Shown one piece after another: positions 1 to 32,564 of a stretch of 64,000 bases of DNA (positions are counted from its first letter, which is position 1; the number at the start of each line of letters is the position of its first letter). The notes beneath the pieces are model-generated. The model ran no database searches. It had not been told where the DNA came from and saw only the letters and a list, made by a program, of their open reading frames with translations. This stretch comes from a virus: IMG/VR virus record IMGVR_UViG_3300006310_000773; one strand, written 5' to 3'. Both the position numbers and the translations under genes were made by a program.

Positions 1-164
1 CCAAAATCCAAAACAGTATCATCTTCAGTAATATCACAAGTATTAATTAAATGGTGACACATTGGAATGGTTAATTCTGGCATCCATCTATAGTGTGAAT
101 ATAATGATTTTCCTGTTTCTGCTCCTCTTTCAAAATAATCTTCATCAAAATATTCTTTTTTCAT
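1..164 (-). CDS. Class I SAM-dependent methyltransferase (partial, runs off window)
   Basis: Hand translation MKKEYFDEDYFERGAETGKSLYSHYRWMPELTIPMCHHLINTCDITEDDTVLDFG; VLDFG is the start of SAM motif I; ATGA overlap with the upstream stop. Confidence 0.65.
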   Translation of the reverse strand, partial: MKKEYFDEDYFERGAETGKSLYSHYRWMPELTIPMCHHLINTCDITEDDTVLDF

Positions 165-4294: not shown

Positions 4295-4302
4295 AATATA
4301 TC

Positions 4303-11610: not shown

Positions 11611-11616
11611 AATTCC

Positions 11617-14582: not shown

Positions 14583-14894
14583 TTATTTAACTGCTTTTTC
14601 TACATCAATTGACCCAGTAGTAGGATCATATTTAATTTTAATATTTAATTCGATTGGCATTATCTTCCCATCCTTCATAGTAATGGGGAGCTTACCTTCT
14701 ACAGCACCTTTAAGTGCATCTTTTGCTGTCTTAAAAGCATGTGTGGGATCATCTTTAATTACTTTATCTAATTCTTTTTTTGCAGCATCTGGAATTATAG
14801 AATCAATCATTTTTTCAACATGTTCTGTTGCTAAATCTTGTGCTTTATCCATCACAAGTCCAGAAATTACATTAAATAGTAAGCCTGCTAACAT
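14583..14894 (-). CDS. Hypothetical protein
   Basis: ORF; start placed at ATG 14894 after AAGGA. Confidence 0.55.
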   Translation of the reverse strand: MLAGLLFNVISGLVMDKAQDLATEHVEKMIDSIIPDAAKKELDKVIKDDPTHAFKTAKDALKGAVEGKLPITMKDGKIMPIELNIKIKYDPTTGSIDVEKAVK

Positions 14895-15624
14895 CACGGT
14901 CCTTTCCATATCTTAAATATAACATCGCTCCGGTTCTTTCATCTTCAAGAACAATCGGATCTTTGTAATTTTTTAAACAATATTGTCTAATTTCTTCACC
15001 ATTATCAATTTCTCCTAATATCTTTCTGTATCTCGCATATTTCTTTTTTCCCAATCTCGCTCTCATAAATGTTGTAGTTGGGACTTTAAAGACTTTTGCT
15101 CCAGCAAATCTTCTTGACGGCCCAGGAGGATTAGTACCTAATCCCGCTTGTCCGGTTGTTACAACTGTCGGGCCATCTTCTGGAATTAATAATATTTGTA
15201 CTTCTTCTTCTTTTAAATATTGTGCCATTCCTTGCAATGAATCATAACATTCTTGAGAATTTATAAACTGTTTAAATTCTTCTTCAAAACTGTTTCTATG
15301 ATAATCAAAAGATGATGACTGTGGAAAACTTTCCTTAATAATTGTTTCTTCTTTCATAAGAAACAACGCAGCACCAATAGAAGCTATTTTACTTTTTCCA
15401 CCAGGAAGTTTTTGTAATAATTTTTTTAAATTGAATGCAATAGTATCCATTATCTTATAAGAATCACGTTCTTTAGAAGATAATTCTTTTCTCTTCCTCA
15501 AAACTTTACCGTTTTTATCGATGATTCCTAATTTGAAGGCTTCTGTTTTATTAAATGGTGTGGTCAATTTTTTTAAGAATTGATAAGCGAGATAATAATC
15601 TACTCCTGTAGTTATTGCAGACAT
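14872..15624 (-). CDS. Conserved T4-like phage hypothetical protein
   Basis: YQFLKKLTTPFNKTEAFKLGIIDKNGK pattern recognised from marine T4-like phages. Confidence 0.6.
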   Translation of the reverse strand: MSAITTGVDYYLAYQFLKKLTTPFNKTEAFKLGIIDKNGKVLRKRKELSSKERDSYKIMDTIAFNLKKLLQKLPGGKSKIASIGAALFLMKEETIIKESFPQSSSFDYHRNSFEEEFKQFINSQECYDSLQGMAQYLKEEEVQILLIPEDGPTVVTTGQAGLGTNPPGPSRRFAGAKVFKVPTTTFMRARLGKKKYARYRKILGEIDNGEEIRQYCLKNYKDPIVLEDERTGAMLYLRYGKDRDVSRLTI

Positions 15625-16016
15625 TATAGTTTCCTTAATTCTTGTATTACGTAATCATCCATAAAAATATCACTAGAGTATATATTCTTTCCTCTAATCC
15701 CCTCAATCCTATCTGGCATCATAGATAATGATACTAAAAATGGTTTTAATATTGGATAATATTCTTCATGAATTTTAAAAAATAATATCCTAGCAGCATC
15801 ACGTGCAGGAAAAACATTAGCAAAAACTATCAAATGATTTAAAATTAATCTAGATTTCAGTTCACCTGTTAATCTATAATGATTAAATAATCTTTTTATA
15901 TAAGTAGTTTTTTTCATATCCTCATGATATTCTGCTTCATCAATACATTGAGGATTATCATACACTTTCATTGCATATAAATTTATATTACCATCTGTTA
16001 TATCTGAAAATATCAT
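15624..16016 (-). CDS. Conserved T4-like phage hypothetical protein
   Basis: YDNPQC..YIKRLF..RLILNHLI pattern recognised from marine myoviruses. Confidence 0.65.
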   Translation of the reverse strand: MIFSDITDGNINLYAMKVYDNPQCIDEAEYHEDMKKTTYIKRLFNHYRLTGELKSRLILNHLIVFANVFPARDAARILFFKIHEEYYPILKPFLVSLSMMPDRIEGIRGKNIYSSDIFMDDYVIQELRKL

Positions 16017-16225
16017 TCTTCATTTGTTTGAGATTTTTCATCAAGAAGCATATTGATAACATTTAACGCACCGTTTGTCATGTGAATTTGATTCGTAAGA
16101 TTGGTATGCTCTTGGTTCAGAAGTTGAATTCTTTCCGCAAGAGCTTTATTATTTTGAATCAATTCTTCTCGTTTATTTTCAATCTCCTCAATAGAGACTG
16201 TTTTCGTGTCATTCTTTGTACCCAT
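16013..16225 (-). CDS. Small coiled-coil protein
   Basis: Heptad-rich ORF in tight gene array. Confidence 0.55.
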   Translation of the reverse strand: MGTKNDTKTVSIEEIENKREELIQNNKALAERIQLLNQEHTNLTNQIHMTNGALNVINMLLDEKSQTNEE

Positions 16226-16255
16226 AATATACCATAATCAAAAAAAGTTAAAAAA

Positions 16256-16549
16256 TTAATTATGACTGATGGTTGATCCTTGTGATACGACTTTCCAGTT
16301 TGTACCATCAAATACAGCCAAAGTCGCCGTACCGGCGTTCCCATCCGTCACCCATGCTACCTGTCCCGCAGTAGTATTTGTATATGCGGTAACATTTCCA
16401 GTATTGCTTGACGGAACTTTAAAAAAGTTCTGTATCGTGATCTTTTTATTACTTGGCGATGCTCCTGACGGATCATCGACAACCATAACTAGATCATCTT
16501 TAGTAGCCGCCGTCGCAGCAGTCAAGTCTGTTATTTTTTTATCAGCCAT
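16256..16549 (-). CDS. Putative virion fibre/decoration protein
   Basis: MADKKITDLTAAT N-terminus and AVFDGTNWK typical of phage fibre proteins. Confidence 0.55.
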   Translation of the reverse strand: MADKKITDLTAATAATKDDLVMVVDDPSGASPSNKKITIQNFFKVPSSNTGNVTAYTNTTAGQVAWVTDGNAGTATLAVFDGTNWKVVSQGSTISHN

Positions 16550-16567
16550 TATTTATTCTCCTATTTA

Positions 16568-16882
16568 TTAACTGTCAGCAAATGTTGCATCGTCTGCTGC
16601 ATCACCAGTAATTGAACCAGAAGCAACTAGAGTTTCATATTGAACTCTCGACCCCTTAGTAATTTTCTTTACCCAACCACCATGAGCAATTCCCATACCG
16701 GCAGCATTACCTACAGTTGTTTCTGTGGAATCTACACCAAAAATAGCGGCGGTATTTCCTGGTAATTGGTGTGCACCGTTATCATGATCGTGTACTACAA
16801 CAGAACTTGTAGTGTAATTTGTTGAATTAGCAATCCAGCGAGGCTTCGACCCCTCATTGTCGTCCATTGTCCATAAAGACAT
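16568..16882 (-). CDS. Putative virion structural protein
   Basis: MSLW..IFGVD..HGGWV..RVQYETLVA pattern of T4-like marine phage structural proteins. Confidence 0.55.
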   Translation of the reverse strand: MSLWTMDDNEGSKPRWIANSTNYTTSSVVVHDHDNGAHQLPGNTAAIFGVDSTETTVGNAAGMGIAHGGWVKKITKGSRVQYETLVASGSITGDAADDATFADS

Positions 16883-16901
16883 ATCTTTTCTCCTTTAATT
16901 A

Positions 16902-17105
16902 TTAAGAACCAAACTTATCTAAAAATCTTTGATAGGCTTGAGGCGATTTAAAACCAAGTTTTTGTGCTTTGCCGCCATCTGCACGAACTGTCTTTTTGAC
17001 TTCCTTTACAGCTTCTTTAACATGCTCTTTTACAGAATGTTCAGAGCTGCGTTCGTGTTTATCGTGTTCATGTTTATGATGATGTTTTTTACCATGTTCA
17101 GCCAT
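16902..17105 (-). CDS. His-rich small protein
   Basis: MAEHGKKHHHKHEHDKHERSSEH; GGAG SD. Confidence 0.55.
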   Translation of the reverse strand: MAEHGKKHHHKHEHDKHERSSEHSVKEHVKEAVKEVKKTVRADGGKAQKLGFKSPQAYQRFLDKFGS

Positions 17106-18482: not shown

Positions 18483-19874
18483 TTATTGTCCTATTCTAAT
18501 TGAATTATATTTTTGTGCTGATTTTAATGTTTTATTCGCATAATCTACTCTTGCTCCACCAACATTTACTTTTCTATCTGATATTAAAGCCTTATATTTT
18601 TTAGCATATTCTTTTTTTACTTTTGCTACTGGGCCTTCTTCTTGTGCTAATTCAACAGTTCCATATCCATCAACCTCTCCCGTAACATCTCTTTGCATTT
18701 TATACTTATATGTAGCATAAAGAAGTTTTTCTGCATCTTGTCCTGGAGTATCACCAGCATAAGATTTCACCATCTCAGGAGTTCCCCATTCCAACGGCCC
18801 ACGCGGATCTACATGTTGTCCAAATCTACCATTTTCTTGTGTGTCTGATGTATTCATTTTACCAGGATGTGGACCCCATGATAAAGATTCTAAAATTTGA
18901 TATAAAAATGGCCTGTTGAAAATATCCCCTTTTGTACAATTATAATCATGTTCTATATTTTCAAAAAGTTTATCTATTTTTTTCACAGAATTTTCTATAT
19001 TATCTTCTAATCCTTCTTTTCCGTGTTCAAACAATAACATATTACTAATTAATTTATCTGTTTCTTTCATCGCTTCAACAACATAAACATTATGCTTTGA
19101 TTGTGATAATATAATAGCTCTAAGTTCTTTGAAACATTCTTCAACTAAAGGCATATTTGAAAAATATTCTGTTTCATAATTTAAATAAACATATTCATTA
19201 TCCTTTTTTGGTCTATCAACAGTAAGTCTTTCAGGTCTAATTGGCCACTCTTTATCAAACATTGCCTCTCTTAAATTTAATCCCTTTCTAACATCCTTCA
19301 ACATTTTCATCGCGGATCTATCTGACATCGATTCCGGTAATCCTTTTTTAAATGATTCTATATCATTTTCTGATGCCGCTTTTCTCATTTTAGAAGCAGA
19401 CATTCCTGACACTCCTTCTGCATCTGGATCTCTTGTTCCTGCACTATGAACTTTAATGTAATCAAATTCATAATATCCATGTCTTGATTTTTTACCATTA
19501 TATTGTTCTAACAATTTTTTAAAATCTGCAACTCTATCACTTCCTACAACCATACATAAATTATCATACTGATCATTTAATTGTACTGCCGCCCCTAATG
19601 CATCTTTAATATTAATATCTCTGGAAAAAGTTTTAGCAAAATTAGGAAACATTTCCTTCATATATTTCATTTTTTGTTGATTAGTCAATGGATTCTTTTT
19701 AGAATCATGAGATTGACTTCCAAAAACATGTAATTCAGTATTATATCTTTTTGCTACATTACTTGCCCCTTCCAACAATCGACCATGCCCGGTTGTTGGT
19801 GGATTAAATCTACCAAAAACAAATACTCCTGTCTTACCTTTTGCTTCTTTTATGAGATTTTTATATGTTTTCAT
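18483..19874 (-). CDS. HIGH-superfamily (cytidylyltransferase/NMNAT-like) nucleotidyltransferase with C-terminal extension
   Basis: FGRFNPPTTGH, KNPL, VVGSDR, MSASKMR; N-terminus MKTYKNLIKE. Confidence 0.8.
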   Translation of the reverse strand: MKTYKNLIKEAKGKTGVFVFGRFNPPTTGHGRLLEGASNVAKRYNTELHVFGSQSHDSKKNPLTNQQKMKYMKEMFPNFAKTFSRDINIKDALGAAVQLNDQYDNLCMVVGSDRVADFKKLLEQYNGKKSRHGYYEFDYIKVHSAGTRDPDAEGVSGMSASKMRKAASENDIESFKKGLPESMSDRSAMKMLKDVRKGLNLREAMFDKEWPIRPERLTVDRPKKDNEYVYLNYETEYFSNMPLVEECFKELRAIILSQSKHNVYVVEAMKETDKLISNMLLFEHGKEGLEDNIENSVKKIDKLFENIEHDYNCTKGDIFNRPFLYQILESLSWGPHPGKMNTSDTQENGRFGQHVDPRGPLEWGTPEMVKSYAGDTPGQDAEKLLYATYKYKMQRDVTGEVDGYGTVELAQEEGPVAKVKKEYAKKYKALISDRKVNVGGARVDYANKTLKSAQKYNSIRIGQ

Positions 19875-20473
19875 TTTCCCTTAACCTTATCTCCAATTTT
19901 CTGATGCATACCAAAAGACAAATACCCACTATTGCCATCTTTTTTAAGTTGTTTTAAATGTTTTGATGCTACCCTTTTATTGCCAAGGAAAACAATTTCT
20001 CCTGAAGAATGTTGTGGAATTCTCTCAGGTTTTCCTTCTATTTTTACAACTCCATAATTTTGATTCTTGCCCATTCCCTCAAAGAATGATTTAAAATCTT
20101 TAAAAGTTCTCTCTTTGTCTGTTTCTACTTCTTCATGCCCCTTACCATATCCAGAACGTCCCCAACGACTGCCCTTTTGACTTTGTGGTTTCTTTCCATG
20201 CTTTTTCTTTTCTTTTTCATCTTCTCTTGTTCTATCTCTGTAAGTACTTGCTTCACCAAATTCTTTTTTAGCCATTCCTTTAACAAATTTTACGGATTGT
20301 CCTCTTCGTTTTTTTCTTATTTCGGGGCTCTTCATGCTATAATTTGCGCCAGTACTGTTGGGCTCTCTTCCTTGTACTTCTGCTTTTCTAGCAGCTCTAT
20401 AAAGCATGTCTTTAGACATTTCATCAATTTTATCGTCTTCTTTTTTCAAATATTCAGAGAATCTTTGACTCAT
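19871..20473 (-). CDS. Basic putative head internal protein
   Basis: MSQRFSEYLKKE; IDEMSKDMLYRAARKA module; internal RTFKDFKSFFE. Confidence 0.5.
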   Translation of the reverse strand: MSQRFSEYLKKEDDKIDEMSKDMLYRAARKAEVQGREPNSTGANYSMKSPEIRKKRRGQSVKFVKGMAKKEFGEASTYRDRTREDEKEKKKHGKKPQSQKGSRWGRSGYGKGHEEVETDKERTFKDFKSFFEGMGKNQNYGVVKIEGKPERIPQHSSGEIVFLGNKRVASKHLKQLKKDGNSGYLSFGMHQKIGDKVKGK

Positions 20474-20476
20474 ATT

Positions 20477-21454
20477 TTAATCCTGTCTTACAATTCCGGA
20501 AGCTTTACGATTTGCTCTTTGTGCCCTTCTCCAGGTATTTTCTTTATCCATCGCTTCTCTTTTCTTTTTTTCTTTGTCTTCAGGAGGAATACCCTGTCGA
20601 ACTTGGCCATACTTCTTTGCCATAGCGCGGTTTTTATCTAACGCTCTTTCATTCGCATCATCATCACCGGTGATCCCTTCTCCAACGGATTCTGCGTCTT
20701 CAGACTTCTGTGCTCGCCACTCTTTAAATGAAGTAAATCCGTAATCTACACTTTCCTTATAGTCAGGATTTTTTACAACTGTAGTGGTGGGGGAAGCTGT
20801 CTTCTTTTTTACTTTTGTTGAATGGCCTACATTATCTGGTATTTCTACACCTTCTTTTTTCGCATAAAACGCAGCACGATCTCTTTCTTGCTTATCTGGA
20901 GGTAGATGTCCTTTAGGTATATCCATTCCCTTTTTCTTAACGGGTACTTTTTTATGCACACTAGGGTTTGCTATTTTGTGTTGTGCAAAATGATCATCCC
21001 CCTTATACCACGCATCCCGTGCCCTTTCTTGATCATCCTCATTTACTTGTCCAGGAGTACCTTCATCAGAACTTCCTTGTTTATGTGGAGACGTTTCTGA
21101 ATTTCTTTTATCCGCCCGTCTTTTCGCAACTTGTTCAAAGGCTAATATAAACTCCTCCTTCTTTACTTCTTTTTTCTTATTCTTACTCTTTGATAATTGT
21201 CTTCTTAACAAATTAAAGAATTCAGGAGCTTCATCAACCATACCTAAAAATTGTTGAAGAACATTTATTAAAATTTGTCTTTCCACAACGGTTGTTATTG
21301 TCCCGCCTTTAATTTTTTTCAGTGCTGACTTAAAATAAGGTAAGTCCTTTTTGTCTTGAATTAATCCAGCCATAACCAGCTGTCTTAATTTTGTGGACAT
21401 ACCCTCTTCTTCGTCTATCATCACTTTATAAGACGTTTGTGTTAAACTATCCAT
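20477..21454 (-). CDS. Hypothetical protein, putative head internal protein
   Basis: Charged modular ORF; internal FTSFKEW. Confidence 0.5.
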   Translation of the reverse strand: MDSLTQTSYKVMIDEEEGMSTKLRQLVMAGLIQDKKDLPYFKSALKKIKGGTITTVVERQILINVLQQFLGMVDEAPEFFNLLRRQLSKSKNKKKEVKKEEFILAFEQVAKRRADKRNSETSPHKQGSSDEGTPGQVNEDDQERARDAWYKGDDHFAQHKIANPSVHKKVPVKKKGMDIPKGHLPPDKQERDRAAFYAKKEGVEIPDNVGHSTKVKKKTASPTTTVVKNPDYKESVDYGFTSFKEWRAQKSEDAESVGEGITGDDDANERALDKNRAMAKKYGQVRQGIPPEDKEKKKREAMDKENTWRRAQRANRKASGIVRQD

Positions 21455-21457
21455 TTA

Positions 21458-22690
21458 TTAGCTCCAATTCTTTAGTTCTACATTAAAATTATTTCTTGAA
21501 AATTCTAGCCGGTCAACCAATTTGACTGCTCCGCCTTTTATTTGATCTACCGCCACAAACCCCTCTGGAGCAGTTACTTTATAACCAGCACCATCTTTAA
21601 CAAAAGTTTGCGTTAATTGTTCCATATTTTCCAATTTAGATATTATCATCATTTTAGCATCAATTAACATATTCATTAAATCGAATATTTTTTCTAAATC
21701 AGCTTTCTTCTGTAGGAAGAACTTCAAAAACTCATTTTTCCGTTGTGTTTTTTTATCTTTAGCTGCATCAGTTTTTAATTTATTAATATCTTTATCGTAT
21801 TTATTTCCTATATATCTTATCAATTGTGTCACATGTGTTCTTGTATTTCTTATTTGTTGTCCTGTTTTTATCTTGCTATTATTAAAAGTTTTTATAATTG
21901 TATTAATTTCAGAATCATCAGCTATCGTGTTTAGCGTATTCGCTGATATGTTTTGAAAAGTTCTCCCTACAGAAGAAAGAATTTTAGTAATAGTCTCCGT
22001 GTCCCTTGCTGTGAAACTTGCTGTACCGGATGCATCAGTAAATTCTGCATCTCTAAACCAGATATCTTTATTCTTTAATAACCTGTTAATATTTATATTG
22101 AAAGACGATTTCATATCTTCTAATTTTGTACCTTTGTATTCCGTATGAAAAACAATGCCCATTTTTGAGTTTAATATCGTTTTTCCCAAATCAGAACCCA
22201 AAGGAACCGCATAAACTATAGTATTTGGATGAAAAGTGATATATCTCTCTCCTTCTATGGTTTTAATTAGCAAATCCTCTTTAGCAAACATCATATCTCC
22301 CTGTAATACTCCTTTAATTCCCAATTTTGGTAAATGTTCTAGAGCAACTTTTAACTTAGATCCAAGTCCAGGAGGATGATTATTATCAATATCTTGTGGT
22401 GTATAATTAATTTTGGGAGTTTTATTGAAAATACTTTTTGATCCAACAAAAAATTTACCATTATCAGGATTAATTCCACAAAAAACTGCAGGTGCACCAT
22501 CCCATTTAGTAGTAATGTAGGTATTTTTCATTGAAGAACCCGCTAACATATCTCTAAGCGATTGAATAAAATTGATTGAACCTCTGGTCCCATCCACTCC
22601 ACCATTTAAAACTTCATCTTCTATGTGTTCTAAATGTAGATTTTTACCGGTTTTCGCTTCACCAAGTAATATATTTATAAATGATTTCAT
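21458..22690 (-). CDS. DUF6267-like protein with ATP-dependent RNA-ligase-type motifs
   Basis: KNLHLEHIED; TTKWDG (motif I KxDG), LQGDMMF (III), PEGFV (IV), AVKLVDR (V). Confidence 0.7.
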   Translation of the reverse strand: MKSFINILLGEAKTGKNLHLEHIEDEVLNGGVDGTRGSINFIQSLRDMLAGSSMKNTYITTKWDGAPAVFCGINPDNGKFFVGSKSIFNKTPKINYTPQDIDNNHPPGLGSKLKVALEHLPKLGIKGVLQGDMMFAKEDLLIKTIEGERYITFHPNTIVYAVPLGSDLGKTILNSKMGIVFHTEYKGTKLEDMKSSFNININRLLKNKDIWFRDAEFTDASGTASFTARDTETITKILSSVGRTFQNISANTLNTIADDSEINTIIKTFNNSKIKTGQQIRNTRTHVTQLIRYIGNKYDKDINKLKTDAAKDKKTQRKNEFLKFFLQKKADLEKIFDLMNMLIDAKMMIISKLENMEQLTQTFVKDGAGYKVTAPEGFVAVDQIKGGAVKLVDRLEFSRNNFNVELKNWS

Positions 22691-22917
22691 GGTGTTAATG
22701 ATCCTGAAGATGGTTTATCTGGATTAACCCCCATATCTTTTAATTTGTCTCTAAGTTCTTTTACATCTTTTGCTGAAAAATCAAACTTGTTCCATGCATC
22801 ACCATAAAATCCTTTTAATCCTTTTCTATAAATTTGTACTTCACCTTCACGGCCATCAAATGACGCTATCATACCTCTTGGCATACCCTCTATTAAATGA
22901 TTTTTAAATGTTTTCAT
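22687..22917 (-). CDS. Small putative internal protein (76 aa)
   Basis: Restarted at ATG 22917 (TGATG overlap): MKTFKNHLIEG. Confidence 0.6.
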   Translation of the reverse strand: MKTFKNHLIEGMPRGMIASFDGREGEVQIYRKGLKGFYGDAWNKFDFSAKDVKELRDKLKDMGVNPDKPSSGSLTP

Positions 22918-23843
22918 CAAATTTTCCTTCCAATTTCTTTTGCAACAACTTCTCTTGTATAAATTTCTAACTCTGAAGAATATTCCCATCTCTTTCGTGG
23001 TATCTTGTATTTTGCAACAAATGCATCTATATTTTCTTGCTGTTCTTCATTTTCAATATTTCCATCTTCTTCTTCATTATCTACTTTAATTGGTATATAA
23101 TGAATTTTTTTAATCTTAATATTATTGACTATTTGTTCATCCCATGAACTATCTGTTTGTCTTTTTGATTTTGCATAACCATAAAATATACTACTCATTA
23201 CCTCTGAATTCTTTTTAATAATTTTCTCTACACCATCAAAATAATCTTTTATTACCAATCTTAATGCTTTACCATCTCCAGACATGTGTTTTTTCATGTC
23301 ATTCCAAAGTTCAAATTCAAATTCTCTTCGTACTCTATCTTTTCCCAGTATTGGACTAAGATGTTTTAATACAAGTTCTCTTATTAAATCATTAAGTTCA
23401 CGTTCTACTACTGCAAATTTGGGTCCTGTTCCACCCCTTTGTGCATTAGCAAACCAAGACATTTCAACCCATCTTCTACCTGCTGTATCTACAGTACTCA
23501 TTATATCATCTCTGGCAGATACAATAACATCCGCATCCAGTTCTGCAACAACGCCGCCCCCTGCAGCTATACCACCTTCCAAATAACGAGACATCATTGT
23601 GAAAAATGCTGAGATAGACCTCTTTCCCCCCTCAAGTTTTTTTAATTCATATAAGTTTTCTGCCCTCAGCACATGAAAAACTGTTGTACGTATCGTATCT
23701 GGCCATATCCTTTTAAACATGGGCCCTGAAATAGGAATCTTTAAAGCACTAGAGGCTCTCCCTTGACTTGCAACATCAAACACAAGATTTGACGCACTTG
23801 TTTGCGCAAATTCTGTTAAAAGTAGATCAAGATAGGATTTCAA
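22917..23843 (-). CDS. Hypothetical protein, tandem paralogue B (possible ADP-ribosyltransferase fold)
   Basis: TVFHV..SISAFF..GGGVVAELDA..GRRWVE..WDEQIVNNIKIKKIH shared with next gene. Confidence 0.5.
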   Translation of the reverse strand: MKSYLDLLLTEFAQTSASNLVFDVASQGRASSALKIPISGPMFKRIWPDTIRTTVFHVLRAENLYELKKLEGGKRSISAFFTMMSRYLEGGIAAGGGVVAELDADVIVSARDDIMSTVDTAGRRWVEMSWFANAQRGGTGPKFAVVERELNDLIRELVLKHLSPILGKDRVRREFEFELWNDMKKHMSGDGKALRLVIKDYFDGVEKIIKKNSEVMSSIFYGYAKSKRQTDSSWDEQIVNNIKIKKIHYIPIKVDNEEEDGNIENEEQQENIDAFVAKYKIPRKRWEYSSELEIYTREVVAKEIGRKI

Positions 23844-24778
23844 CCTTTACTTCTCCTCAAAGCTTGTACTTCTGTTTGTGCAATTTTAGTAACATAATTT
23901 GATAAGTCTCTAGCTCCATTCACCCAATGTGTATGAGGAATTTTACCTAATCTTGGAATTACTGAATCTTTTACCCAATCCAATTCAAACTGTCTAGAAT
24001 TAAAAGTATGAACCTTTATAATTTTAATTTTATCGACTACTTGTTCATCGTATACATTCCATTCTGATAATTCTGAATCTCCTCCTACCATACGACCAGA
24101 AGAAGGATGCTTAACTGCTACTGTTCCCCTTCTGACATAATATCCATGAACTGCTCCTTGAATATCTTTTTTATGCTTCTTGAGAATTGCATTTACACCA
24201 TCAATATAATCTGCAATTATCAAAGACATCACCTTTTTGTTATCTTTAAAATTTTCTCGTAAATGCCACCAAGCTCCCAATCCTATATCTGGTTCTATTT
24301 TTATGAGTTCTTTAGTTTTTGGATCATGTTTTATTGCAATATCTATTAACATCTGTTCAAGTTCTTTATGCATAGTCTTTTTTTTGTCTATGTTCATCAA
24401 TTCAACCCACCGTCTGCCGGTTTTATCTGGCATGCTCATCAGATCACCTTTACTTGACATAATAATATTTGCATCTAATTCTACAACAAGTCCGCCCCCA
24501 CCTTGTATACCATGTTCCATAGTATCAGCATCCATATTAAAAAAAGCAGAAATTGATTTTTTCCTATTCTGTAATTTCTTCAACTTCTCAAAACCAATAC
24601 CACTTGTAACATGAAACACCGTTGCTCTTGGTAATTGTACTTGAAAAATCCATTCCATTGTGCTAGATGTTAATGGAATTTGCATATACTGAATTTTTTG
24701 AAATTCAAATATTTTTTCAGAAGCGCTTCTTTGCCAAGCTGGCGGGTCTTCTTTTAGATATGTTTTAAATGTTTTCAT
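23840..24778 (-). CDS. Hypothetical protein, tandem paralogue A (possible ADP-ribosyltransferase fold)
   Basis: MKTFKTYLKE; TVFHVT..SISAFF..GGGLVVELDA..GRRWVE..YDEQVVDKIKIIKVH. Confidence 0.5.
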   Translation of the reverse strand: MKTFKTYLKEDPPAWQRSASEKIFEFQKIQYMQIPLTSSTMEWIFQVQLPRATVFHVTSGIGFEKLKKLQNRKKSISAFFNMDADTMEHGIQGGGGLVVELDANIIMSSKGDLMSMPDKTGRRWVELMNIDKKKTMHKELEQMLIDIAIKHDPKTKELIKIEPDIGLGAWWHLRENFKDNKKVMSLIIADYIDGVNAILKKHKKDIQGAVHGYYVRRGTVAVKHPSSGRMVGGDSELSEWNVYDEQVVDKIKIIKVHTFNSRQFELDWVKDSVIPRLGKIPHTHWVNGARDLSNYVTKIAQTEVQALRRSKG

Positions 24779-24985
24779 TTAAATTTCTCCACGAGCCGCA
24801 ATGTCCACCTTATCTTGACTCTTTGCCCACTTCTGAGCCTGGGATTTGTTTTTAAATTCATTAGAAACTGGCATCCATTTATTGTTCCCCACATGACCCA
24901 TTACATACCATTTTTTGTCGTTAGGGTTCTTGGAAACAATATACTTGGAATTTGCTTCTTCTAGATACTGTGAAAATGTTATCAT
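24779..24985 (-). CDS. Small putative internal protein
   Basis: MITFSQYLEEA N-terminus. Confidence 0.6.
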   Translation of the reverse strand: MITFSQYLEEANSKYIVSKNPNDKKWYVMGHVGNNKWMPVSNEFKNKSQAQKWAKSQDKVDIAARGEI

Positions 24986-25251
24986 CTTTTATAAAGTTTT
25001 TTAAAATCTACTCTTGTACCAGCTTCTTTTTCAAGTTTCTCTGGTGTTACCTTTTTTAACTTGGCACGTTCAAAATAACTATTTTTTCCATGTGTAGCCA
25101 CGAGCTTTATAAACATATTTTCTCCTTTCACACCAACTCTACCTGTATGCCAAGAGCTACCATCATATGCTACATATTTCTCAGTATTATCCTTAGATGT
25201 GTCCAAATAATATTCTACTTTTTCTTTTAGATGTTGTTTAAATGTTCGCAA
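24982..25251 (-). CDS. Small putative internal protein
   Basis: Restarted at TTG 25251 after GGAG SD: MRTFKQHLKE. Confidence 0.55.
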   Translation of the reverse strand: MRTFKQHLKEKVEYYLDTSKDNTEKYVAYDGSSWHTGRVGVKGENMFIKLVATHGKNSYFERAKLKKVTPEKLEKEAGTRVDFKKLYKR

Positions 25252-26869
25252 CTGAATCTCCTGAATTACCTGTTTTATTTGCAAGTGATACATGAAAAAT
25301 TCTCTTAGGATCTGGATTTGCTTGTATTAAATCAGTAACATAATCCTTGAGTTGTTTTTGCTGTTTTACTTTCGTATACCACGATACTCTTCCACCAAAC
25401 TTCACTTTCTTTGGTTTTTCAAACTCTAATTTAAAATTTGGGTCTGGTAAAGAATTATGAAATAATCTCTTTCTCAATTTTTTCCATTCAGGCCCAGATG
25501 CAAGAGTTATATGTAAATCTTTTATTGGTTTCATATCTGAATTTTTCGTCACAACACTATCTCTCATTTTTGATAATGCTCCCATATCTTTTGAAGATAA
25601 CATATACTTCAAAACACTTTCAACCTTGACCTCTTCTCTAATGTTATATTTGTTTTTGATTGCTCTCAATAATTCTAATTTATTATTTTTACCAGTTTTA
25701 ACTGCAAATTCAAGAGCGTGGTTGAGAGCATCTCCTACTTGTATCCCTTTCAGTCCTATTCCCATTAAATCTCTTCCTCCAATTGAAAGATCTTTAATTG
25801 ATGTCACCGTCATTCTTCTAAGTCTACTAGAAAGAGTAGGTCTATTCTTTACCTTTAAATATTCATCTATATTTGCGATACCTTTATTATCAACATTTTT
25901 TATAAATTGGACAAGTTTAAAATCATTTTTTTCTAAAAATGGAGAGTTATCTGTATATGTGACTACACTTTGAACTGCTTCAGCATCATTATTTGATAAT
26001 CTCATTTTACTTATAACCTCTTTTCCTGCATTTGAACCATATCCATTCATTAACATTCCCATAAATGCGGGAAATGCTTTTTTATCAAGTTTATCAATTG
26101 ATGCAAGATCAATTTTTCTTAAATTTGATTGTGGTAAAATATGATCAATTAATCCTGTATCAAATAATAATTTAATTCCAATACTAGGTTTCTCTGCTTT
26201 AGTAAACATCTTACGAAACTCTTCTTGAAATCTCTCTGCTGAAACTGTTGATATGGACTTTGCATTTTTCTTTATTTCTTCAAATGTTTTTGATTCAATC
26301 TTAAATTCAAATCTTGCCGCAAACTGTACCGCACGCAACATTCTCAATGGATCTTCTTCAAATGCAACTGGACTAATCATACGGATTTCCTTTTTCTTCA
26401 AATCCGTCATACCTTTTCGACCTATATCAATTACTTTTCCTGTGTCTAAATCTTTTGCAAGAGCATTAATCCAAAAATCTCTTCTTAATTGATCTTGTTG
26501 AAGTGTAATTCCCTTTCCTAATTTGACTTCAAAATCCTTATGTCCTTTTCCCGTACTCTTTGAATCTATTCTAGGAATTGAAATATCAATCTCTCCAGAA
26601 CCACCTTCTGGAGTATACTTAATAATACCAAAAGATTTTCCAACTAGATTTACCTTTCCAAATGGTTGCAAGATTTTACCCAAAGTCTCTAATTCTATTC
26701 CAACCACTAAAAGATCTAAATCTTTTGATACTTTTCCTAAAATTTCATCTCTTACCGCACCACCAATTTGATATATCTTACCGCCACCTCGTTTGACCGC
26801 ATTTCTTACATCAGTAGAAAGTGTTGCCGCAAGATCATTTTCATGTATTATTTGTTTGAAGGATTTCAT
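25238..26869 (-). CDS. cca: Class II tRNA nucleotidyltransferase (CCA-adding-like) fused to C-terminal 2H phosphoesterase
   Basis: GGAVRD..DLDL, RRDFWINALA, EDPLRMLR, SAERFQEEF; C-terminal LHITLA and FHVSLA (2H motifs). Confidence 0.85.
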   Translation of the reverse strand: MKSFKQIIHENDLAATLSTDVRNAVKRGGGKIYQIGGAVRDEILGKVSKDLDLLVVGIELETLGKILQPFGKVNLVGKSFGIIKYTPEGGSGEIDISIPRIDSKSTGKGHKDFEVKLGKGITLQQDQLRRDFWINALAKDLDTGKVIDIGRKGMTDLKKKEIRMISPVAFEEDPLRMLRAVQFAARFEFKIESKTFEEIKKNAKSISTVSAERFQEEFRKMFTKAEKPSIGIKLLFDTGLIDHILPQSNLRKIDLASIDKLDKKAFPAFMGMLMNGYGSNAGKEVISKMRLSNNDAEAVQSVVTYTDNSPFLEKNDFKLVQFIKNVDNKGIANIDEYLKVKNRPTLSSRLRRMTVTSIKDLSIGGRDLMGIGLKGIQVGDALNHALEFAVKTGKNNKLELLRAIKNKYNIREEVKVESVLKYMLSSKDMGALSKMRDSVVTKNSDMKPIKDLHITLASGPEWKKLRKRLFHNSLPDPNFKLEFEKPKKVKFGGRVSWYTKVKQQKQLKDYVTDLIQANPDPKRIFHVSLANKTGNSGDSVANI

Positions 26870-28856
26870 GAATACCGTGTGCTATAGATTTATATTTAAC
26901 CTGTTCATCTTGTTTTTTATTTCCATAAATTGCGTCATTAGCATTCTTTAGATGTTCAGCAAAACCTTTGTGTAATACCATTTCAAATTTAAATTGTCCA
27001 CCATATCCATTCCCATCTTCTCTAATTCCAATACCTGCAACAGGAATAACTTCTTTTGAACCTTCAACATTATATCCAATATAAGGGTTTCCTTTTTCAT
27101 CTTTCAATGGTTCAAAACGTTCACTTATTTTACTATAATCATCTGTACCAAATATATGTTTCATTGTATGTGGATCTAAAGAAAGATCCCCAATTGCCAT
27201 AACTTCTTCTCTTTCAGAAACGCCCTTCAATGGAAAATTACCTTTGATATCAGTCATCATTCCTTCTGTTAATTTAGGATTTTCTAGTATAGCCGTTATT
27301 GCCGCATCTTGATAATCTTGGCTAACTTGTCTATGTTCTTTAAGAAATTGTTTAGCTTCTCCATCACCAGCCTTCGCTACTTGATTTAATGCTGTCAACA
27401 ATACTTTTGATTTATCTCTAGTTAAATCCCACTTTCCGCCCTCTTTCTTGTTTGTTATCAGTTCTTTTAAATCACTAACTTTTTTTGACTTCATTAAGTC
27501 TGATAAAGGTGGTTCATTGGGATTAATTTTATCAAAATGTTTAGTTACCGCCTCTACTAATCTATTTCTTTGATTTTCCCCAAATAAAGATGCTTTAATG
27601 GGGTCTGGTAACTGGTCATCCCAAGCTTCAAATTTTCCTGTACCAGAATTTAAAAAGTTTACAAGTGTAGATTTTTTTAATGAAACTTCATGAAGAAAAC
27701 TGCCGCCCTTTCCTTTAACTCTGAAAAAAACATCTGTTGAATACCCTTTATTTTCATCATAACCTTCACCCCACATAGCCTCAACATCTTCTTTTGTATC
27801 CCAACAACCAAACTCTATTTCAGAACCTTCTCCATGTTCTTTTTTCAAATAATTAAATATTGCTTTTCTATTTCCGTGTGCCGCATCAACCCAAGAATCA
27901 TCAATTACTTTTTTCCTTTTTATCTTCCCCTTCTTATCTTTTTTATAATCAGGGTATGTGTCTTCTAAATCTTTATTATATTTTTTTAAAACATCTCTAA
28001 ATTGATCAGCATCTTTATCATCCATTGTTGTCATAGCCATTGTCATCAATTCTCCCGCTTGAGCAAAGATTTTACCAGCACCGCCCTTAACATCTGAATA
28101 ATTCTGATATTTTCCTGACGCCGCACCAGAGGCTTCACAATTTGCCATTCTTTCAATAAGATCAAAAACTCTAGGAGACACTTTTTTTCCACGCAAATTA
28201 TCTGGAATTTTAAATCTATCTGGTGGAGGGCCCTGAGTGGCAAATTTAACATTACCTAAAAATTCTTCTAAGTCTTTTCCTTTACCAATTGGTTCATTCA
28301 CTCTATCACTATTTTGTGCATCTTCAATACTTACTGTTTCAGTTTGTCTATGTTTATTTTTTTGATCGGATGTTTTTTCTTTTACTGTTGGTTTTTTCTC
28401 TGATTTTGTAACTACAGATTTTGCATTTTGAGTGTCAGATTTTACTCTTTTCTTTTTTGATTCAGAGGGATGTCGAAAATCGTGTGGGACTTCATCTTTA
28501 CTATAACCATGTTTCTCAGCTTTATCATCTTTCTGTTGGGTTTTTCTATCTAATTTTTGAATTTCTTCACCACCTGTCGGATGAGTTCCATTAACCCAAG
28601 CTGTAGCATGGATTGCATCATTAAAATATTCTCTTTTATTTTCACCATTTTTAACACCAACCCAAGAACCACTATTACTTTTATATATTACACCTCTTCT
28701 TAATTGTTTAAATCCTTGATGTTTCTTATCTTTTTGCTGCTTTGTGTGATGGGCATGTTGATCTACATGATATGCGTGTGGGTCTTTTGATTTGGAGTCT
28801 TTATCTATATAAGGGCCTGACTCTTCCCTTATAAATTGATTAAATGATTGTGGCAT
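26841..28856 (-). CDS. Large hypothetical protein, possible PD-(D/E)xK nuclease domain
   Basis: MPQSFNQFIREE; AGE..YSTDVFF..HEVSLKKS. Confidence 0.45.
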   Translation of the reverse strand: MPQSFNQFIREESGPYIDKDSKSKDPHAYHVDQHAHHTKQQKDKKHQGFKQLRRGVIYKSNSGSWVGVKNGENKREYFNDAIHATAWVNGTHPTGGEEIQKLDRKTQQKDDKAEKHGYSKDEVPHDFRHPSESKKKRVKSDTQNAKSVVTKSEKKPTVKEKTSDQKNKHRQTETVSIEDAQNSDRVNEPIGKGKDLEEFLGNVKFATQGPPPDRFKIPDNLRGKKVSPRVFDLIERMANCEASGAASGKYQNYSDVKGGAGKIFAQAGELMTMAMTTMDDKDADQFRDVLKKYNKDLEDTYPDYKKDKKGKIKRKKVIDDSWVDAAHGNRKAIFNYLKKEHGEGSEIEFGCWDTKEDVEAMWGEGYDENKGYSTDVFFRVKGKGGSFLHEVSLKKSTLVNFLNSGTGKFEAWDDQLPDPIKASLFGENQRNRLVEAVTKHFDKINPNEPPLSDLMKSKKVSDLKELITNKKEGGKWDLTRDKSKVLLTALNQVAKAGDGEAKQFLKEHRQVSQDYQDAAITAILENPKLTEGMMTDIKGNFPLKGVSEREEVMAIGDLSLDPHTMKHIFGTDDYSKISERFEPLKDEKGNPYIGYNVEGSKEVIPVAGIGIREDGNGYGGQFKFEMVLHKGFAEHLKNANDAIYGNKKQDEQVKYKSIAHGIHEILQTNNT

Positions 28857-28890
28857 AACTCAATATCCTGCTATAATTAAAGATTATAAC

Positions 28891-28898
28891 TATTTATG
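28891..28898 (-). promoter_or_regulatory. Possible T4-type late promoter (CATAAATA)
   Basis: Near-consensus motif ~35 bp upstream of 26841..28856. Confidence 0.45.
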
Positions 28899-28920
28899 TT
28901 TATAAAAATTGTCTCTTGAG

Positions 28921-30588
28921 TTATCTTGAAAGGAGTTTGAAGGCATTTTCTAATCCGCCGATGAGATAATTTTTCCCTAATTTTACATCTGCGATTTTTC
29001 CAGCTGGTTCTCCCCGAATGCTTTTCATATTTTTTAAATAATCCTTCATTGCCTTCATATTGGGATTTGCTGCTTTGGGGATTTTTACTATTCCACTTTT
29101 TTCCATATATTCTAAATGTTCACCACCCCTTAATGTAATGAGCCATTCTTTTCCTCCTGCACCAGGACCATGATCCCAACTTATAATATCAACAAGTGGT
29201 ACTCGTAATTTTTTAGCCATCGCTCCAATATCTGCTTTAGTAAGACCATTACCTTCTGTTAATATTTGTTTTGCGATATTTTCAATTGGGCCGTCATAAT
29301 CTTCAACATACTTGTTTAATTCATATTTACCACTATCCATTCCATAAATCTGCATGTGTAATCTTTTTTTAACAGATTTACCATCCTTTGTTAAATTGAC
29401 TTTTTTGATAGCGGTTTTGCCGGGTGATGGTTTTCTTTGCCCAAATGTAACTTCTCTGTCCCATGAATCTTGATCTACATCAAAACCATGAGCTTTTTTG
29501 GTGTGATCTTTTGCATGTTGAACTGCTGCGGAAAAAGTTGGATGATATATGTCATATGGTTTTCGTGCTTCTTCAATTCCTGCTTGGGCTTTATTGGATT
29601 TTTCAACCTCTTTCATAGAATCTTTTTTTGAAACATTACTTTTATTTTTCTCAAATTGTTTATAATTTTTATTTTCTCTCATTGGATTGTCAGAAATCTT
29701 AATCGTTGGATGATTCACTTTAGCTTTAGAAAGGGTACTCTTAACACCACTTTCTATTCCCTTTTCAACATGTAATGTATCATCTTTCCATTTAAATTTT
29801 CCTGAATGATTCTTTAAATGTTTATTAATTTTTTCTTTGTATGCTCTATTAGGAGTTACAAATTCTTCTAACACTTTTCCATCTTTGTAATGGGCGGCAT
29901 GTTTATGGTCACCTCCCCCTTTACGAATCTTATTTAATTTTCCATCATCCTGATATCTACTTGTACTATAATGTTGACCAGTTTTTGTATTTTTAATAGT
30001 ATACTGCGGTCTTTTTAAACTTTTTAGTAACTCTATGCTTTCCTCTACCTTTCCGCTTGCTTGTTTTTTCCGTTGTTCTTTATAGCGGTTATCTCGTTCT
30101 TGATGTATTTTTTCATACTTGTTTTCCATCTCTTTATCGAGACGTTTCGATTTCGCCCATTCAGATTCTTTTTTTGAAATTTTGTTTACTGCTTCTCTTT
30201 CACTTCGTTGCCTTCGATCATCAACTTCACCAAGTTCCAATTCTTCTTTAGGACCATATCCCTTAGGCGTTACATCTGTTATTTCTACACCTCGTAGTCT
30301 CGCACCCTTTCTCATACGTGCTGCAACTTCTGGTTTTGGATTACCTTTTTTGTCAAAGAACTTTGCGAGATGAGGTGGTAATTTTGATGCTTCATCAAAA
30401 TTGAAATCTTCTTTCATCAATTTCATACCCATTCTTTTTCGTATGACATTTATCTGCTTGATGATCTCTTTTTGTTTTGGTGAACCAGGCATAGATTTCA
30501 ACCCCTTCACCATCAATGCATACATATCTGCTGTATCTGATGATCCTTCTACAAGTTCTGTTTCCTGATAAGATTTAAACGTTTTCAT
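28921..30588 (-). CDS. Modular putative head internal (poly)protein
   Basis: MKTFKSYQETELVE; short modules separated by hydrophobic-x-E sites. Confidence 0.5.
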   Translation of the reverse strand: MKTFKSYQETELVEGSSDTADMYALMVKGLKSMPGSPKQKEIIKQINVIRKRMGMKLMKEDFNFDEASKLPPHLAKFFDKKGNPKPEVAARMRKGARLRGVEITDVTPKGYGPKEELELGEVDDRRQRSEREAVNKISKKESEWAKSKRLDKEMENKYEKIHQERDNRYKEQRKKQASGKVEESIELLKSLKRPQYTIKNTKTGQHYSTSRYQDDGKLNKIRKGGGDHKHAAHYKDGKVLEEFVTPNRAYKEKINKHLKNHSGKFKWKDDTLHVEKGIESGVKSTLSKAKVNHPTIKISDNPMRENKNYKQFEKNKSNVSKKDSMKEVEKSNKAQAGIEEARKPYDIYHPTFSAAVQHAKDHTKKAHGFDVDQDSWDREVTFGQRKPSPGKTAIKKVNLTKDGKSVKKRLHMQIYGMDSGKYELNKYVEDYDGPIENIAKQILTEGNGLTKADIGAMAKKLRVPLVDIISWDHGPGAGGKEWLITLRGGEHLEYMEKSGIVKIPKAANPNMKAMKDYLKNMKSIRGEPAGKIADVKLGKNYLIGGLENAFKLLSR

Positions 30589-31139: not shown

Positions 31140-32564
31140 TTAGTTAAAATTAAACTTGTCAAAGTCTTTCTTTTTTTCAGTATTCTCTGTGGAAGGAACA
31201 TCATCATATTCATCTGTCTTTTTAACTTTTTTGCTATTATCAACAACATCATTAATGCCCGTTTGAGCAGATTCTTCAAGATCAAATAGTCTCATTTTCT
31301 TTCTATCCACTCCAATCATAAATCTTTTGTTATATATTGGATCACTGTATCTATTTTTTAACTGTTTAACTAAAAATTGACCCAATTCTTCAAGCTCTTC
31401 AGTGGATATTATGGCAAACATGAAATCAGCCGTGGCGGGCAAACCAAAAGATTCAGACGTATCTTCTAATCCAATATCTGTAGAAGTAAATCCACTTCTT
31501 GTAGTTTGTGTAGCGGAAACGATGGGAACATTATATTCTACTGCGAGACCTCTCAATTCCTCCGCAATAGATTTAATATATGAATAAGAATTTACATATG
31601 CTCCTGCTTTGATTCTAGATGAAGTACATATATTTAAATAATCAATAAAAATAATATCTGGTTTAAAATCTCTTTTTAATGCCAATTCATTCAGAAGACT
31701 TCTAAAATGTTGGGCTCCTGCTGCGGCAGTTGGATATTCTTTTATAATTAATTTTCCTTTAGCCTTACTTTTCAGCTTTGCAACTTTCTGATCAAAAATA
31801 GCCTTTGGTAAATCAGTAATATCATCCATAGAAATATTTAAAAGATTCGCATCAATTCTCATTGCAATCTTTTCTTCTGCCATTTCTAATGTAATATACA
31901 ATACATTTCTACTTTCATTTAAACAATTAGCCGCAACATGACACATAAACAATGATTTACCTACACCTGTTCCTGCCAATGCGATATTTAATGTCTTTCT
32001 TGGTAATCCACCCTTTGTAATCTTATTAAAATATTCTAAATCAAAAGGAATCTTTTCCTCAACTTTATGATAAAAATTATAACGATCGTCACTATCATCT
32101 ATATAATCATGTCCAATATGAGGATCAAATGTTACTCCTAAAGCATCTGTGAGAATTTCTGGTATCTTTCCTTTATCTTCTTTAGTTTTACTATTAGGAC
32201 TAATGATTTGAACACTCTCCATAATAGCATTATAAATGGATTTATCTTGACAAAATGATTCTGTAGTATTAAGTAACCACTCCTCATCAGATATTTCTTC
32301 TTTATTTTCTTCTAAAAATCCAACAAGTTTAACACAACTATTATAATCATCTTCATGAAGATCTGTCCTTTCACTCAAATTGATTACAACTGCCTCTTTT
32401 GTTGGGAGATTATTATAAGTCGAAATAAATGAATGTAATTCTTCAAAAAGTGCCTTTTCTCCTTTATCTTCAAAAAATACACCTTTAAGATAAGGTATAA
32501 CTTTGCGAGTATACGTTTCATTATATAATAGATTTTTTAATATTAAATGTTCAACTCTATCCAT
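31140..32564 (-). CDS. gp41: Replicative DNA helicase
   Basis: [45 protein letters not shown]. Confidence 0.97.

Follow-up and report, generated by a model that had tools for sequence, protein, structure and literature searches.

Why would a T4-like phage encode a run of RNA-processing enzymes behind a common N-terminal leader, and do these enzymes form one system? The question arises from an uncultured marine T4-like virus, represented here by a stretch of 64,000 nucleotides from the IMG/VR record IMGVR_UViG_3300006310_000773 (hereafter, the window), a T4-like phage genome segment with a G+C content of ca. 31% and every gene on the minus strand. Between positions 18,483 and 26,869, three genes encode a protein of the DUF6267 family, a CCA-type enzyme joined to a 2H phosphoesterase domain, and a nucleotidyltransferase of the HIGH superfamily (Table 1). 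A sequence-only reading had described this region as a pre-packaged tRNA-repair kit, in which ligase, CCA enzyme, 2H esterase and HIGH nucleotidyltransferase would be carried in the virion. Its gene boundaries and sequence observations were confirmed, and the enzymes and their head-targeting leader stand, whereas the single kit does not. The best explanation, in which our confidence is somewhat better than even, is that the region forms the central part of a variable locus for "internal proteins", located directly downstream of the gp41 helicase gene, and that its leader-bearing products are injected as a cargo with two enzyme pairs, CCA-2H and DUF6267-HIGH.

A common leader resembling the T4 capsid targeting sequence

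The products of this locus share a leader of about 10 residues with the consensus M-[KR]-[TS]-[FY]-x-x-[aromatic/aliphatic]-[IL]-x-E, and proteins bearing it are hereafter called tagged. A scan with a regular expression of every start codon opening an open reading frame (ORF) of at least 60 residues identified 11 true gene starts, all contiguous, from 18483 to 30588, including two TTG starts that were revealed by the motif itself. None of the 104 candidates on the plus strand carried the leader, and matches beyond the block were all either internal or due to chance. Across the 11 leaders, position 4 is always F or Y, position 8 is I or L in all but one, and a glutamate invariably occurs at position 10 or 11. 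The start of the HIGH enzyme, MKTYKNLIKE/A, closely parallels that of IPII in the T4 record, MKTYQEFIAE/A (slashes mark cut sites). Mutational work on the T4 capsid targeting sequence (CTS) attributed targeting to residues 4 and 7 and processing to residues 8 and 10 (PMC9026906); the leader matches this tested sequence at its four key positions and, judged by sequence, is its counterpart. The phage's own major capsid protein displays L-A-E/S (residues 53-55) just in front of the Gp23 domain, and removal of the leaders would be expected from the predicted gp21-type protease encoded in the window. Outside the block, the start of an AAA_5 (CobS/MoxR-like) ATPase at 45120-46307 (minus strand), MMNTYKDHQIEF, also fits the leader pattern, probably by chance, since its position 8 is Q and the context differs.

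Two leader-bearing homologues of the HIGH enzyme were reported in cyanophage virions. The S-SZBM1 cytidylyltransferase (leader MRFRQFIIE/A) was found in the virion proteome, and the adjoining DUF6267 protein, which is leaderless and begins directly at its conserved domain, was absent from the same listing (PMC9146016). The S-CREM2 cytidylyltransferase gp154 (leader MKNFSSFLTE/A) was likewise identified as a virion protein (PMC10665884). Together with the likeness to the T4 CTS and the occurrence of a T4-type prohead protease, these reports agree with the targeting-like N-terminus that had been recognized from the letters of the DNA, and we consider it probable that the tagged proteins of this phage are packaged in the head.

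Alternatively, the enzymes may be ordinary intracellular proteins of the late or middle period, with nothing injected and the shared N-terminus serving as a translation-start or recombination cassette. Leaderless cyanophage orthologues, for instance the DUF6267 protein and the cytidyltransferase of Syn1, are presumably intracellular and would fit such a scheme, as would the virion record, in which DUF6267 and CCA proteins are without report from any virion and the published detection of the HIGH enzyme amounts to 2-3 peptides at low counts. Yet the leader conserves exactly the four positions experimentally defined in T4, and in multi-domain proteins it is found again inside the chain, as a linker directly preceding the DUF6267 domain, a place where it cannot act as a translation start. 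Moreover, it tracks virion detection in S-SZBM1, with the tagged HIGH homologue detected and the untagged DUF6267 protein not. We regard this alternative as unlikely.

DUF6267 as an RNA-ligase-like covalent nucleotidyltransferase

The protein at 21458-22690 matches DUF6267 over its full length and contains the motifs of covalent nucleotidyltransferases that had been proposed for it, namely K62-W-D-G65, Q130-G-D132, E376-G-F-V379, and V389-K390-L-V392. These were examined in an alignment of 85 diverse representatives taken from 2,711 relatives in a library of 1.8 billion proteins, in which the motif positions were invariant or at least 90% conserved: G377 and K390 were invariant, and K62, D64, and G65 of motif I (KxDG) were conserved in at least 90% of the sequences. 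The motifs follow the order I, III (QGD), IV (EG), and V (lysine), with QGD taken as motif III by position only. The codon of the candidate nucleophile K62 is found at 22505-22507, and an N-terminal HLEHxED segment is also conserved.

A structural model built on the homologue alignment was predicted with high scores (pLDDT 91.6, pTM 0.88), disorder being restricted to residues 1-12, where the leader lies, and the last three. Foldseek matches of this model were weak (E 0.1) and one-sided toward ligases and capping enzymes. An exhaustive structural comparison with VIA-align against 48,161 chains returned RNA ligases at all of the first 10 ranks (Z 8.8-7.1, over 170-203 residues), so that the ligase fold anticipated from the motifs was recovered. 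These included Naegleria NgrRnl (8.8), fungal Trl1 (8.4 and 8.2), T. brucei REL1 (8.3), T4 Rnl2 (8.1), T4 Rnl1 (7.7), and archaeal Rnl3 (7.4), with DNA ligases ranking below (Z 6.8-5.5), followed by a capping enzyme (5.4). In the model, the strand of motif V (387-391) is followed by a single helix (394-403), after which the chain ends with no OB domain, and a helical insert of about 130 residues (228-354) separates motifs IIIa and IV. The DNA-ligase families PF01068 and PF01653 were not matched by the protein; among Pfam families, no RNA-ligase family was found, only PF19782, and a phmmer search of PDB sequences returned no match.

Based on this model, DUF6267 is a member of the covalent nucleotidyltransferase superfamily, with an OB-less RNA-ligase-like organization, and is filed there and not in the Rnl families because fold and motifs fit, the OB domain is absent, and a helical domain is inserted. 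It falls outside the named Rnl1/Rnl2-type RNA-ligase families, though its predicted mode of working is ligase-like. We infer that it would form a Lys62-nucleoside monophosphate (NMP) intermediate and seal 5'-phosphate/3'-OH breaks, more likely in RNA. DUF6267 thereby gains a testable function, that of an RNA-ligase-like covalent nucleotidyltransferase, for a family that has members in cyanophage and pelagiphage genomes by the hundreds and among marine metagenome proteins by the thousands. Stenotrophomonas phage DLP6, a T4-like phage from soil, encodes a tagged DUF6267 protein (MMKFTQFLAE/S), a 722-residue "cytitidyltransferase" and a canonical ATP-dependent DNA ligase; with a tagged DUF6267 occurring in a soil phage that also has a canonical ligase, the family is neither restricted to marine phages nor a simple ligase replacement.

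A CCA-type enzyme joined to a 2H phosphoesterase

The product of 25238-26869 had been described as a class II CCA-type enzyme with a 2H domain, and both assignments hold. Its N-terminal part matches PF01743 (E 1e-18), in keeping with a pol-beta head domain, and PF12627 (E 4e-16), with PF13735 below its cut-off, and a solved CCA-adding enzyme (E 3.5e-22). The NCBIfam model PRK13299 spans residues 23-406 (E 6.5e-41) with 140.7 bits, the equivalog cut-off of 290 not being reached, and PRK10885 (E 1e-37) also matches, with PcnB-type models lower. Motifs A to E can be read as GGAVRD, DLDLLV, RRDF, EDPLRMLRAVQF (EDPLR), and ERFQEEF, and this part is, on sequence grounds, an apparently complete class II CCA-type enzyme. 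It is not needed for maturing the single tRNA of the window, because the tRNA-Ala gene encodes its own CCA.

The CCA part ends at a conserved I410-R-E412/E site, beyond which lies the 2H domain with its two motifs, H453-I-T455 and H526-V-S528. In an alignment of 24 sequences, including a CCA-fused form with 18% identity, both HxT/S motifs were invariant, as was R523. No Pfam 2H family was matched even at E 10, and a profile search of PDB sequences found none. The domain model (pLDDT 79.9) gave Foldseek probabilities of 0.9-1.0 for Usb1, ns2, LigT, and Acb1, and in the exhaustive comparison ranks 1-21 were all 2H enzymes (Z 8.0-4.3), with the next chain at Z 2.9. Residues 413-543 are, as modelled, a true 2H phosphoesterase domain. 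The same domain is shared by 71 longer proteins, about half of which are CCA fusions of 543-570 residues; among 488 deposited phage records with a CCA homologue, none covers the 2H part.

The fusion of CCA and 2H occurs in three lineages, in one of which the 2H domain has no more than 18% identity; elsewhere, the two are encoded by adjacent genes. Standalone 2H ORFs begin (MVKVESVLK) exactly after the predicted I-x-E/E cut, and one has its own leader, MRTFEEYNE/E. Since the I-x-E/E site is conserved at the junction and standalone ORFs start right after it, CCA-2H is probably a polyprotein cleaved at I-R-E/E. Seen in this light, the fusion is a sign of co-delivery, and the putative functional tie between the two enzymes rests on their persistent adjacency, even with a very divergent 2H. 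By analogy with the E. coli CCA-HD enzyme, the task of CCA-2H would most likely be the mending of tRNA 3' ends.

A different role was considered for the 2H domain, that of an injected immune-signal esterase resembling Acb1 or coronavirus ns2, which would destroy cyclic or 2'-5'-linked oligonucleotides, its fusion to the CCA enzyme having no purpose other than common packaging as a polyprotein. Its best fold matches are indeed mouse hepatitis virus (MHV) ns2 (Z 8.0) and phage Acb1 (7.9), and both the cut site at the junction and the 2H protein with a leader of its own are compatible with separate action. However, the P. horikoshii LigT-like chain (7.9) and the Deinococcus cyclic phosphodiesterase (CPDase; 7.5) lie within 0.5 Z of the viral esterases, Usb1 following at 6.7, and the link with CCA, kept across lineages even with the most divergent 2H and as adjacent genes, points to a shared task. 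A purely signal-degrading role appears improbable to us.

The HIGH nucleotidyltransferase

The third enzyme had been assigned to the HIGH family, in agreement with its match to PF01467 (25.4 bits, cut-off 21), to phrog_3041 (E 1e-67), and to phage "cytidyltransferase" PHROGs. The HIGH domain covers approximately residues 11-205 (19260-19844) and exhibits the motifs GRFNPPTTGH and SASKMR, with T27-x-G-H30 and S159-A-S-K-M-R164 conserved and G21, R22, P25, H30, G111, D113, R114, S159, K162, and R164 invariant. Its profile gave weak matches to NadD, PPAT, NadR, and NMNAT chains of the PDB, all with E 0.002 or worse; a plain sequence search of PDB with the protein gave nothing useful, and TIGR01526 scored 25.5 bits against a cut-off of 341. 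The conserved GRFNPPTxGH/SASKMR motifs and the weak NadD/PPAT/NadR/NMNAT matches place the enzyme, on sequence grounds, among the small-molecule adenylyltransferases, as an NMNAT/PPAT-like member. For its C-terminal 258 residues, neither Pfam (including E 10) nor an Atlas search with residues 205-463 gave a family. The HIGH enzyme is also present in E. coli jumbo phages that have no DUF6267. A complex prediction combining DUF6267 (residues 12-410) with the HIGH domain (11-215) scored 0.00, which weighs neither for nor against binding.

Two conserved gene pairs and their fused forms

Gene linkage was examined in 80 viral contigs that encode DUF6267, almost always downstream of gp41. The DUF6267 protein carried the leader in at least 64 of them, and in 55 a HIGH gene lay downstream in the same orientation. 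A CCA or 2H gene occurred within 8 kb in none of these 80 loci, and of 20 contigs with a relative of the present CCA enzyme, five had DUF6267 and HIGH within 10 kb. Because the pairs so rarely co-occur, the genes do not make up one conserved system, as the idea of a co-inherited kit would imply; they represent two conserved pairs, DUF6267-HIGH and CCA-2H, sharing a variable cargo locus in this lineage.

In 13 of the 80 loci, DUF6267 is followed by a P-loop kinase (AAA_33/Zeta-like) that is frequently in frame with the HIGH domain. HTVC008M illustrates the arrangement: at 5974-10167, DUF6267 is succeeded by a basic protein, then a tagged P-loop kinase, and lastly HIGH. The tagged kinase of the relatives displays GGPGSGKT and lies either between DUF6267 and HIGH or in frame with the HIGH domain. 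By sequence, it resembles a polynucleotide kinase or the NadR arrangement (NMNAT plus kinase) and may be either a polynucleotide or a nucleoside kinase.

PHROG and Pfam evidence also revealed DUF6267-HIGH and kinase-DUF6267 fusions. In most of these, the conserved KNxHxxH stretch that opens the DUF6267 domain is preceded, within a few residues, by a leader-like [LIVM]-x-E site, and because of this cleavage linker the fused forms are probably polyproteins cut in the prohead. Fusion as a proof of functional coupling was accordingly downgraded once such linkers were seen in most fused forms.

The position of the DUF6267-HIGH pair in the replication module, between gp41 and gp61, raises another possibility, namely that DUF6267 seals DNA nicks in place of the missing T4 gp30 ligase, with HIGH and the P-loop kinase of the relatives providing a NadR-like supply of NAD+ to DUF6267 or to a host ligase, and the whole serving replication or genome-end repair. 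Searches of the complete Melnitz, Syn1, and HTVC008M genomes gave no PF01068 or PF01653 ligase, the HIGH domain is similar to NMN/NaMN adenylyltransferases, and the HIGH-kinase arrangement recurs in the loci just described. Against this, the DUF6267 model has no OB domain, and among its fold matches all DNA ligases rank below the RNA ligases; DLP6 possesses its canonical ligase (PF01068) besides a tagged DUF6267; and the HIGH enzyme of the E. coli jumbo phages occurs without DUF6267. We give little credence to this possibility.

Proposed course of events and points against it

From the domain identities, folds, motif conservation, leader pattern, and gene linkage observed here, the following course is proposed for the packaging of these proteins, their substrates, and the cooperation between the pairs. 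The tagged proteins would be synthesized late, their leader would bring them into the prohead core, and the gp21-type protease would cut them after [LI]-x-E. Ejected with the DNA, they would hence be active before any phage gene expression. The 2H esterase would open or trim 2',3'-cyclic-phosphate ends and the CCA enzyme would rebuild the tRNA 3' terminus; DUF6267, through its Lys62-NMP intermediate, would seal nucleic-acid breaks, with the HIGH nucleotidyltransferase as its conserved partner.

Several observations weigh against this scheme, besides the separate inheritance of the two pairs and the sparse virion record. The cyanophage proteome papers caution that proteins without a structural role may co-purify if they are abundant (PMC9146016, PMC10665884). 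A 5' kinase was not recognized when 10 proteins of the block were compared with families, and tblastn with the P-loop kinase of a relative against the window gave nothing below E 1; for want of a recognized 5' kinase, breaks in the anticodon loop with a 5'-OH could not be sealed by the block proteins alone. The HIGH enzyme, moreover, has no assigned step in the T4 Pnk/Rnl1 scheme, and completeness of the T4 pathway, which the sequence-only reading invoked, is not supported. The Z-scores of DNA ligases lie only 1-3 units under those of RNA ligases, so that by its fold RNA is no more than the likelier substrate of DUF6267. As for 2H, the leading fold matches are viral signal-degrading esterases and not tRNA-repair enzymes, and typical 2H cyclic phosphodiesterases leave a 2'-phosphate, possibly unsuited to the CCA enzyme. 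Finally, the support for late expression, described below, consists of a 7-base motif in an AT-rich genome.

A more ambitious version of the scheme would see one head-loaded RNA-end set, made of the CCA enzyme, the protease-released 2H, a new RNA-ligase family, and an NMNAT-like transferase, injected with the DNA and pre-emptively restoring nuclease-damaged tRNAs or destroying alarm signals. We find this version rather doubtful. If true, the set would represent a pre-emptive, protein-borne counter-defence aimed at the translation apparatus and directed against host abortive-infection nucleases. The reading retained here is that of a tagged cargo with two enzyme pairs.

Genomic context of the tagged locus

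Megablast of the region against deposited phages gave no match at the DNA level. At the protein level, Methylophilales phage Melnitz (DUF6267 with 48.6% identity) and Pelagibacter phage HTVC008M, both filed under Kyanoviridae, are the closest named phages. A sister contig of 50.8 kb in IMG/VR is collinear over the whole block, with enzymes that are 97-98% identical and a 671-residue protein that is 99% identical, as compared with 66% and 72% for the charged, low-complexity products of 19871-20473 and 28921-30588, respectively. Synonymous codon differences from this contig exceed non-synonymous ones by about 2:1 in the three enzyme genes, which are thus under purifying selection.

The features of the window are collected in Table 1. 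The 671- and 555-residue tagged proteins have lysine-rich N-terminal halves and no recognizable family; the latter has one conserved stretch in common with Melnitz gene 20. The 671-residue gene was considered as a nuclease-like neighbour of cyanophage DUF6267 genes, for which BLAST gave no support. The tandem paralogues parA and parB (22917-24778) share a conserved core, ..SISAFF..GGGG.V.ELDA..GRRWVE.., and a search of the Atlas with parB returned unnamed viral clusters only. Since 7 of 20 related contigs have homologues immediately next to the CCA gene, parA/parB may be a third partner of CCA-2H.

Table 1. Tagged locus and other features of the window (leader sequences in the one-letter code; a slash marks the cut site)
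Feature	Coordinates	Strand	Remarks
HIGH-superfamily nucleotidyltransferase, 463 aa	18483-19874	minus	PF01467, phrog_3041; leader residues 1-10 (19845-19874)
200-aa lysine-/glutamate-rich protein	19871-20473	minus	leader-like start MSQRFSEYLKKE/D; Pfam/PHROG family none
325-aa charged, low-complexity protein	20477-21454	minus	no clear leader
DUF6267 protein, 410 aa	21458-22690	minus	PF19782, E 8e-116; leader residues 1-11 MKSFINILLGE/A (22658-22690)
76-aa protein	22687-22917	minus	leader MKTFKNHLIE/G, read from internal ATG at 22917
308-aa protein "parA", unknown family	22917-23843	minus	leader MKSYLDLLLTE/F; TTG start overlapping upstream stop codon
312-aa protein "parB", parA paralogue	23840-24778	minus	leader MKTFKTYLKE/D; virus-only unknown family
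68-aa protein	24779-24985	minus	leader MITFSQYLEE/A
89-aa protein	24982-25251	minus	TTG start; leader MRTFKQHLKE/K
2H phosphoesterase part (residues 413-543) of 543-aa product	25238-25633	minus	stop codon follows
CCA part (residues 1-412) of same 543-aa product	25634-26869	minus	leader residues 1-10 MKSFKQIIHE/N (26840-26869)
671-aa protein, unknown family	26841-28856	minus	leader MPQSFNQFIRE/E; Pfam/NCBIfam none
555-aa charged protein	28921-30588	minus	leader MKTFKSYQETELVE/G; first tagged gene after gp41 helicase gene
DnaB/gp41-type helicase	31140-32564	minus	
tRNA-Ala(UGC)	52248-52323	minus	CCA end genomically encoded; sole tRNA gene in window
Gp23 capsid protein	59449-60786	minus	
T4-type scaffold	60824-62077	minus	
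T4 gp21-type prohead core serine protease	62153-62800	minus	PF03420, E 1.8e-35

The exact T4 late promoter, TATAAATA, was not enriched in the window, with 8 matches for 14 expected. A looser, late-promoter-like ATAAATA occurs in intergenic spacers, as cATAAATA at 28891-28897, 41 nt upstream of the 26841-28856 gene, and likewise upstream of the scaffold gene; of the two motifs, only this one is suggestive. Following the tagged block, small genes at 14872-17105 (minus strand) encode a DUF7207 protein and alanine/threonine/glycine-rich proteins. This stretch is syntenic with Melnitz genes near an annotated "S-layer protein" and with a cyanophage "virion structural protein", and because of this synteny its products probably belong to the virion as well. 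A long run of genes at 161-12983 (minus strand) has N-termini that resemble, as judged by appearance, those of sugar-nucleotide or glycosyl-modifying enzymes (e.g. MVNVLIPMAGAGSRF).

Comparison with known systems

The closest structural counterparts of DUF6267 are the OB-less RNA ligases NgrRnl (5cot), Trl1 (9r3w, 6n0t), REL1 (1xdn), Rnl2 (2hvq), and Rnl1 (9do4), whose core aligns with it at Z 8.8-7.7 and which share motifs I, III, IV, and V and the lack of an OB domain after motif V. DUF6267 differs from them by its low identity (9-17%) and by a helical domain that is inserted in the core, not appended to it. For CCA-2H, the nearest parallel is the E. coli CCA-HD enzyme and its jumbo-phage copies (Pectobacterium phage CBB, Cronobacter phage GAP32), in which a class II CCA enzyme is also joined to a domain able to clear 2',3'-cyclic or 2'-phosphate ends; here, however, the accessory domain is 2H instead of HD and would probably be released by proteolysis.

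In T4, Pnk and Rnl1 are made after infection. The combination found in this locus had been thought to be undescribed, yet phage RNA-repair sets are known to include Rnl1, Rnl2, and RtcB ligases, kinases, 2H and HD esterases, RlaP, and CCA enzymes (PMC7824862). Like T4 Pnk and Rnl1 and these sets, the present locus associates a covalent-nucleotidyltransferase ligase with end-healing enzymes, and jumbo phages also have CCA and 2H. It departs from them in having a ligase-like DUF6267 with a helical insert, no kinase-phosphatase, HIGH as a constant partner, and head-targeting leaders. What appears to be undescribed is thus narrower: the ligase family; the CCA-2H arrangement, which was found in none of 488 deposited phage records with a CCA homologue (the 2016 Burroughs/Aravind RNA-repair survey lying outside this comparison); head delivery, with tagged CCA and 2H enzymes among the cargo; and an 11-gene tagged locus dominated by enzymes.

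The "cytidylyltransferase/NMNAT-like" proteins of cyanomyoviruses, S-SZBM1_140 and S-CREM2 gp154, have a homologous HIGH domain and the same leader, and in S-SZBM1 also the same site downstream of DUF6267. They are shorter (286-362 residues vs. 463 here), and their neighbourhoods differ, DUF6267 being leaderless in S-SZBM1 and not adjoining in S-CREM2. The DUF6267 family is thereby linked to a "cytidylyltransferase" that has been found repeatedly, and left unexplained, in cyanophage virion proteomics.

The proteins known to be injected by T4-type phages comprise small inhibitors of restriction and a single ADP-ribosyltransferase. Should the head carry large RNA-processing enzymes as well, host RNA would be repaired or reprogrammed from the very first minutes of infection, which to our knowledge is part of no current model, and the leader with its [LI]xE grammar would provide a simple predictor of the ejected proteome in uncultured T4-like phages. 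Delivery in the head by a CTS is classical for the T4 internal proteins IPI-III and for Alt, with which the present locus shares a 10-residue leader, MKT[YF]..[aromatic][IL].E, cut (here by prediction) by a gp21-type protease, a variable gene cluster, and, in the case of Alt, a cargo that is an enzyme delivered (here putatively) with the DNA. In contrast to these, the putative cargo described here is far larger and enzymatic, is encoded by 11 tagged genes beside gp41, and has no homology to the T4 internal proteins.

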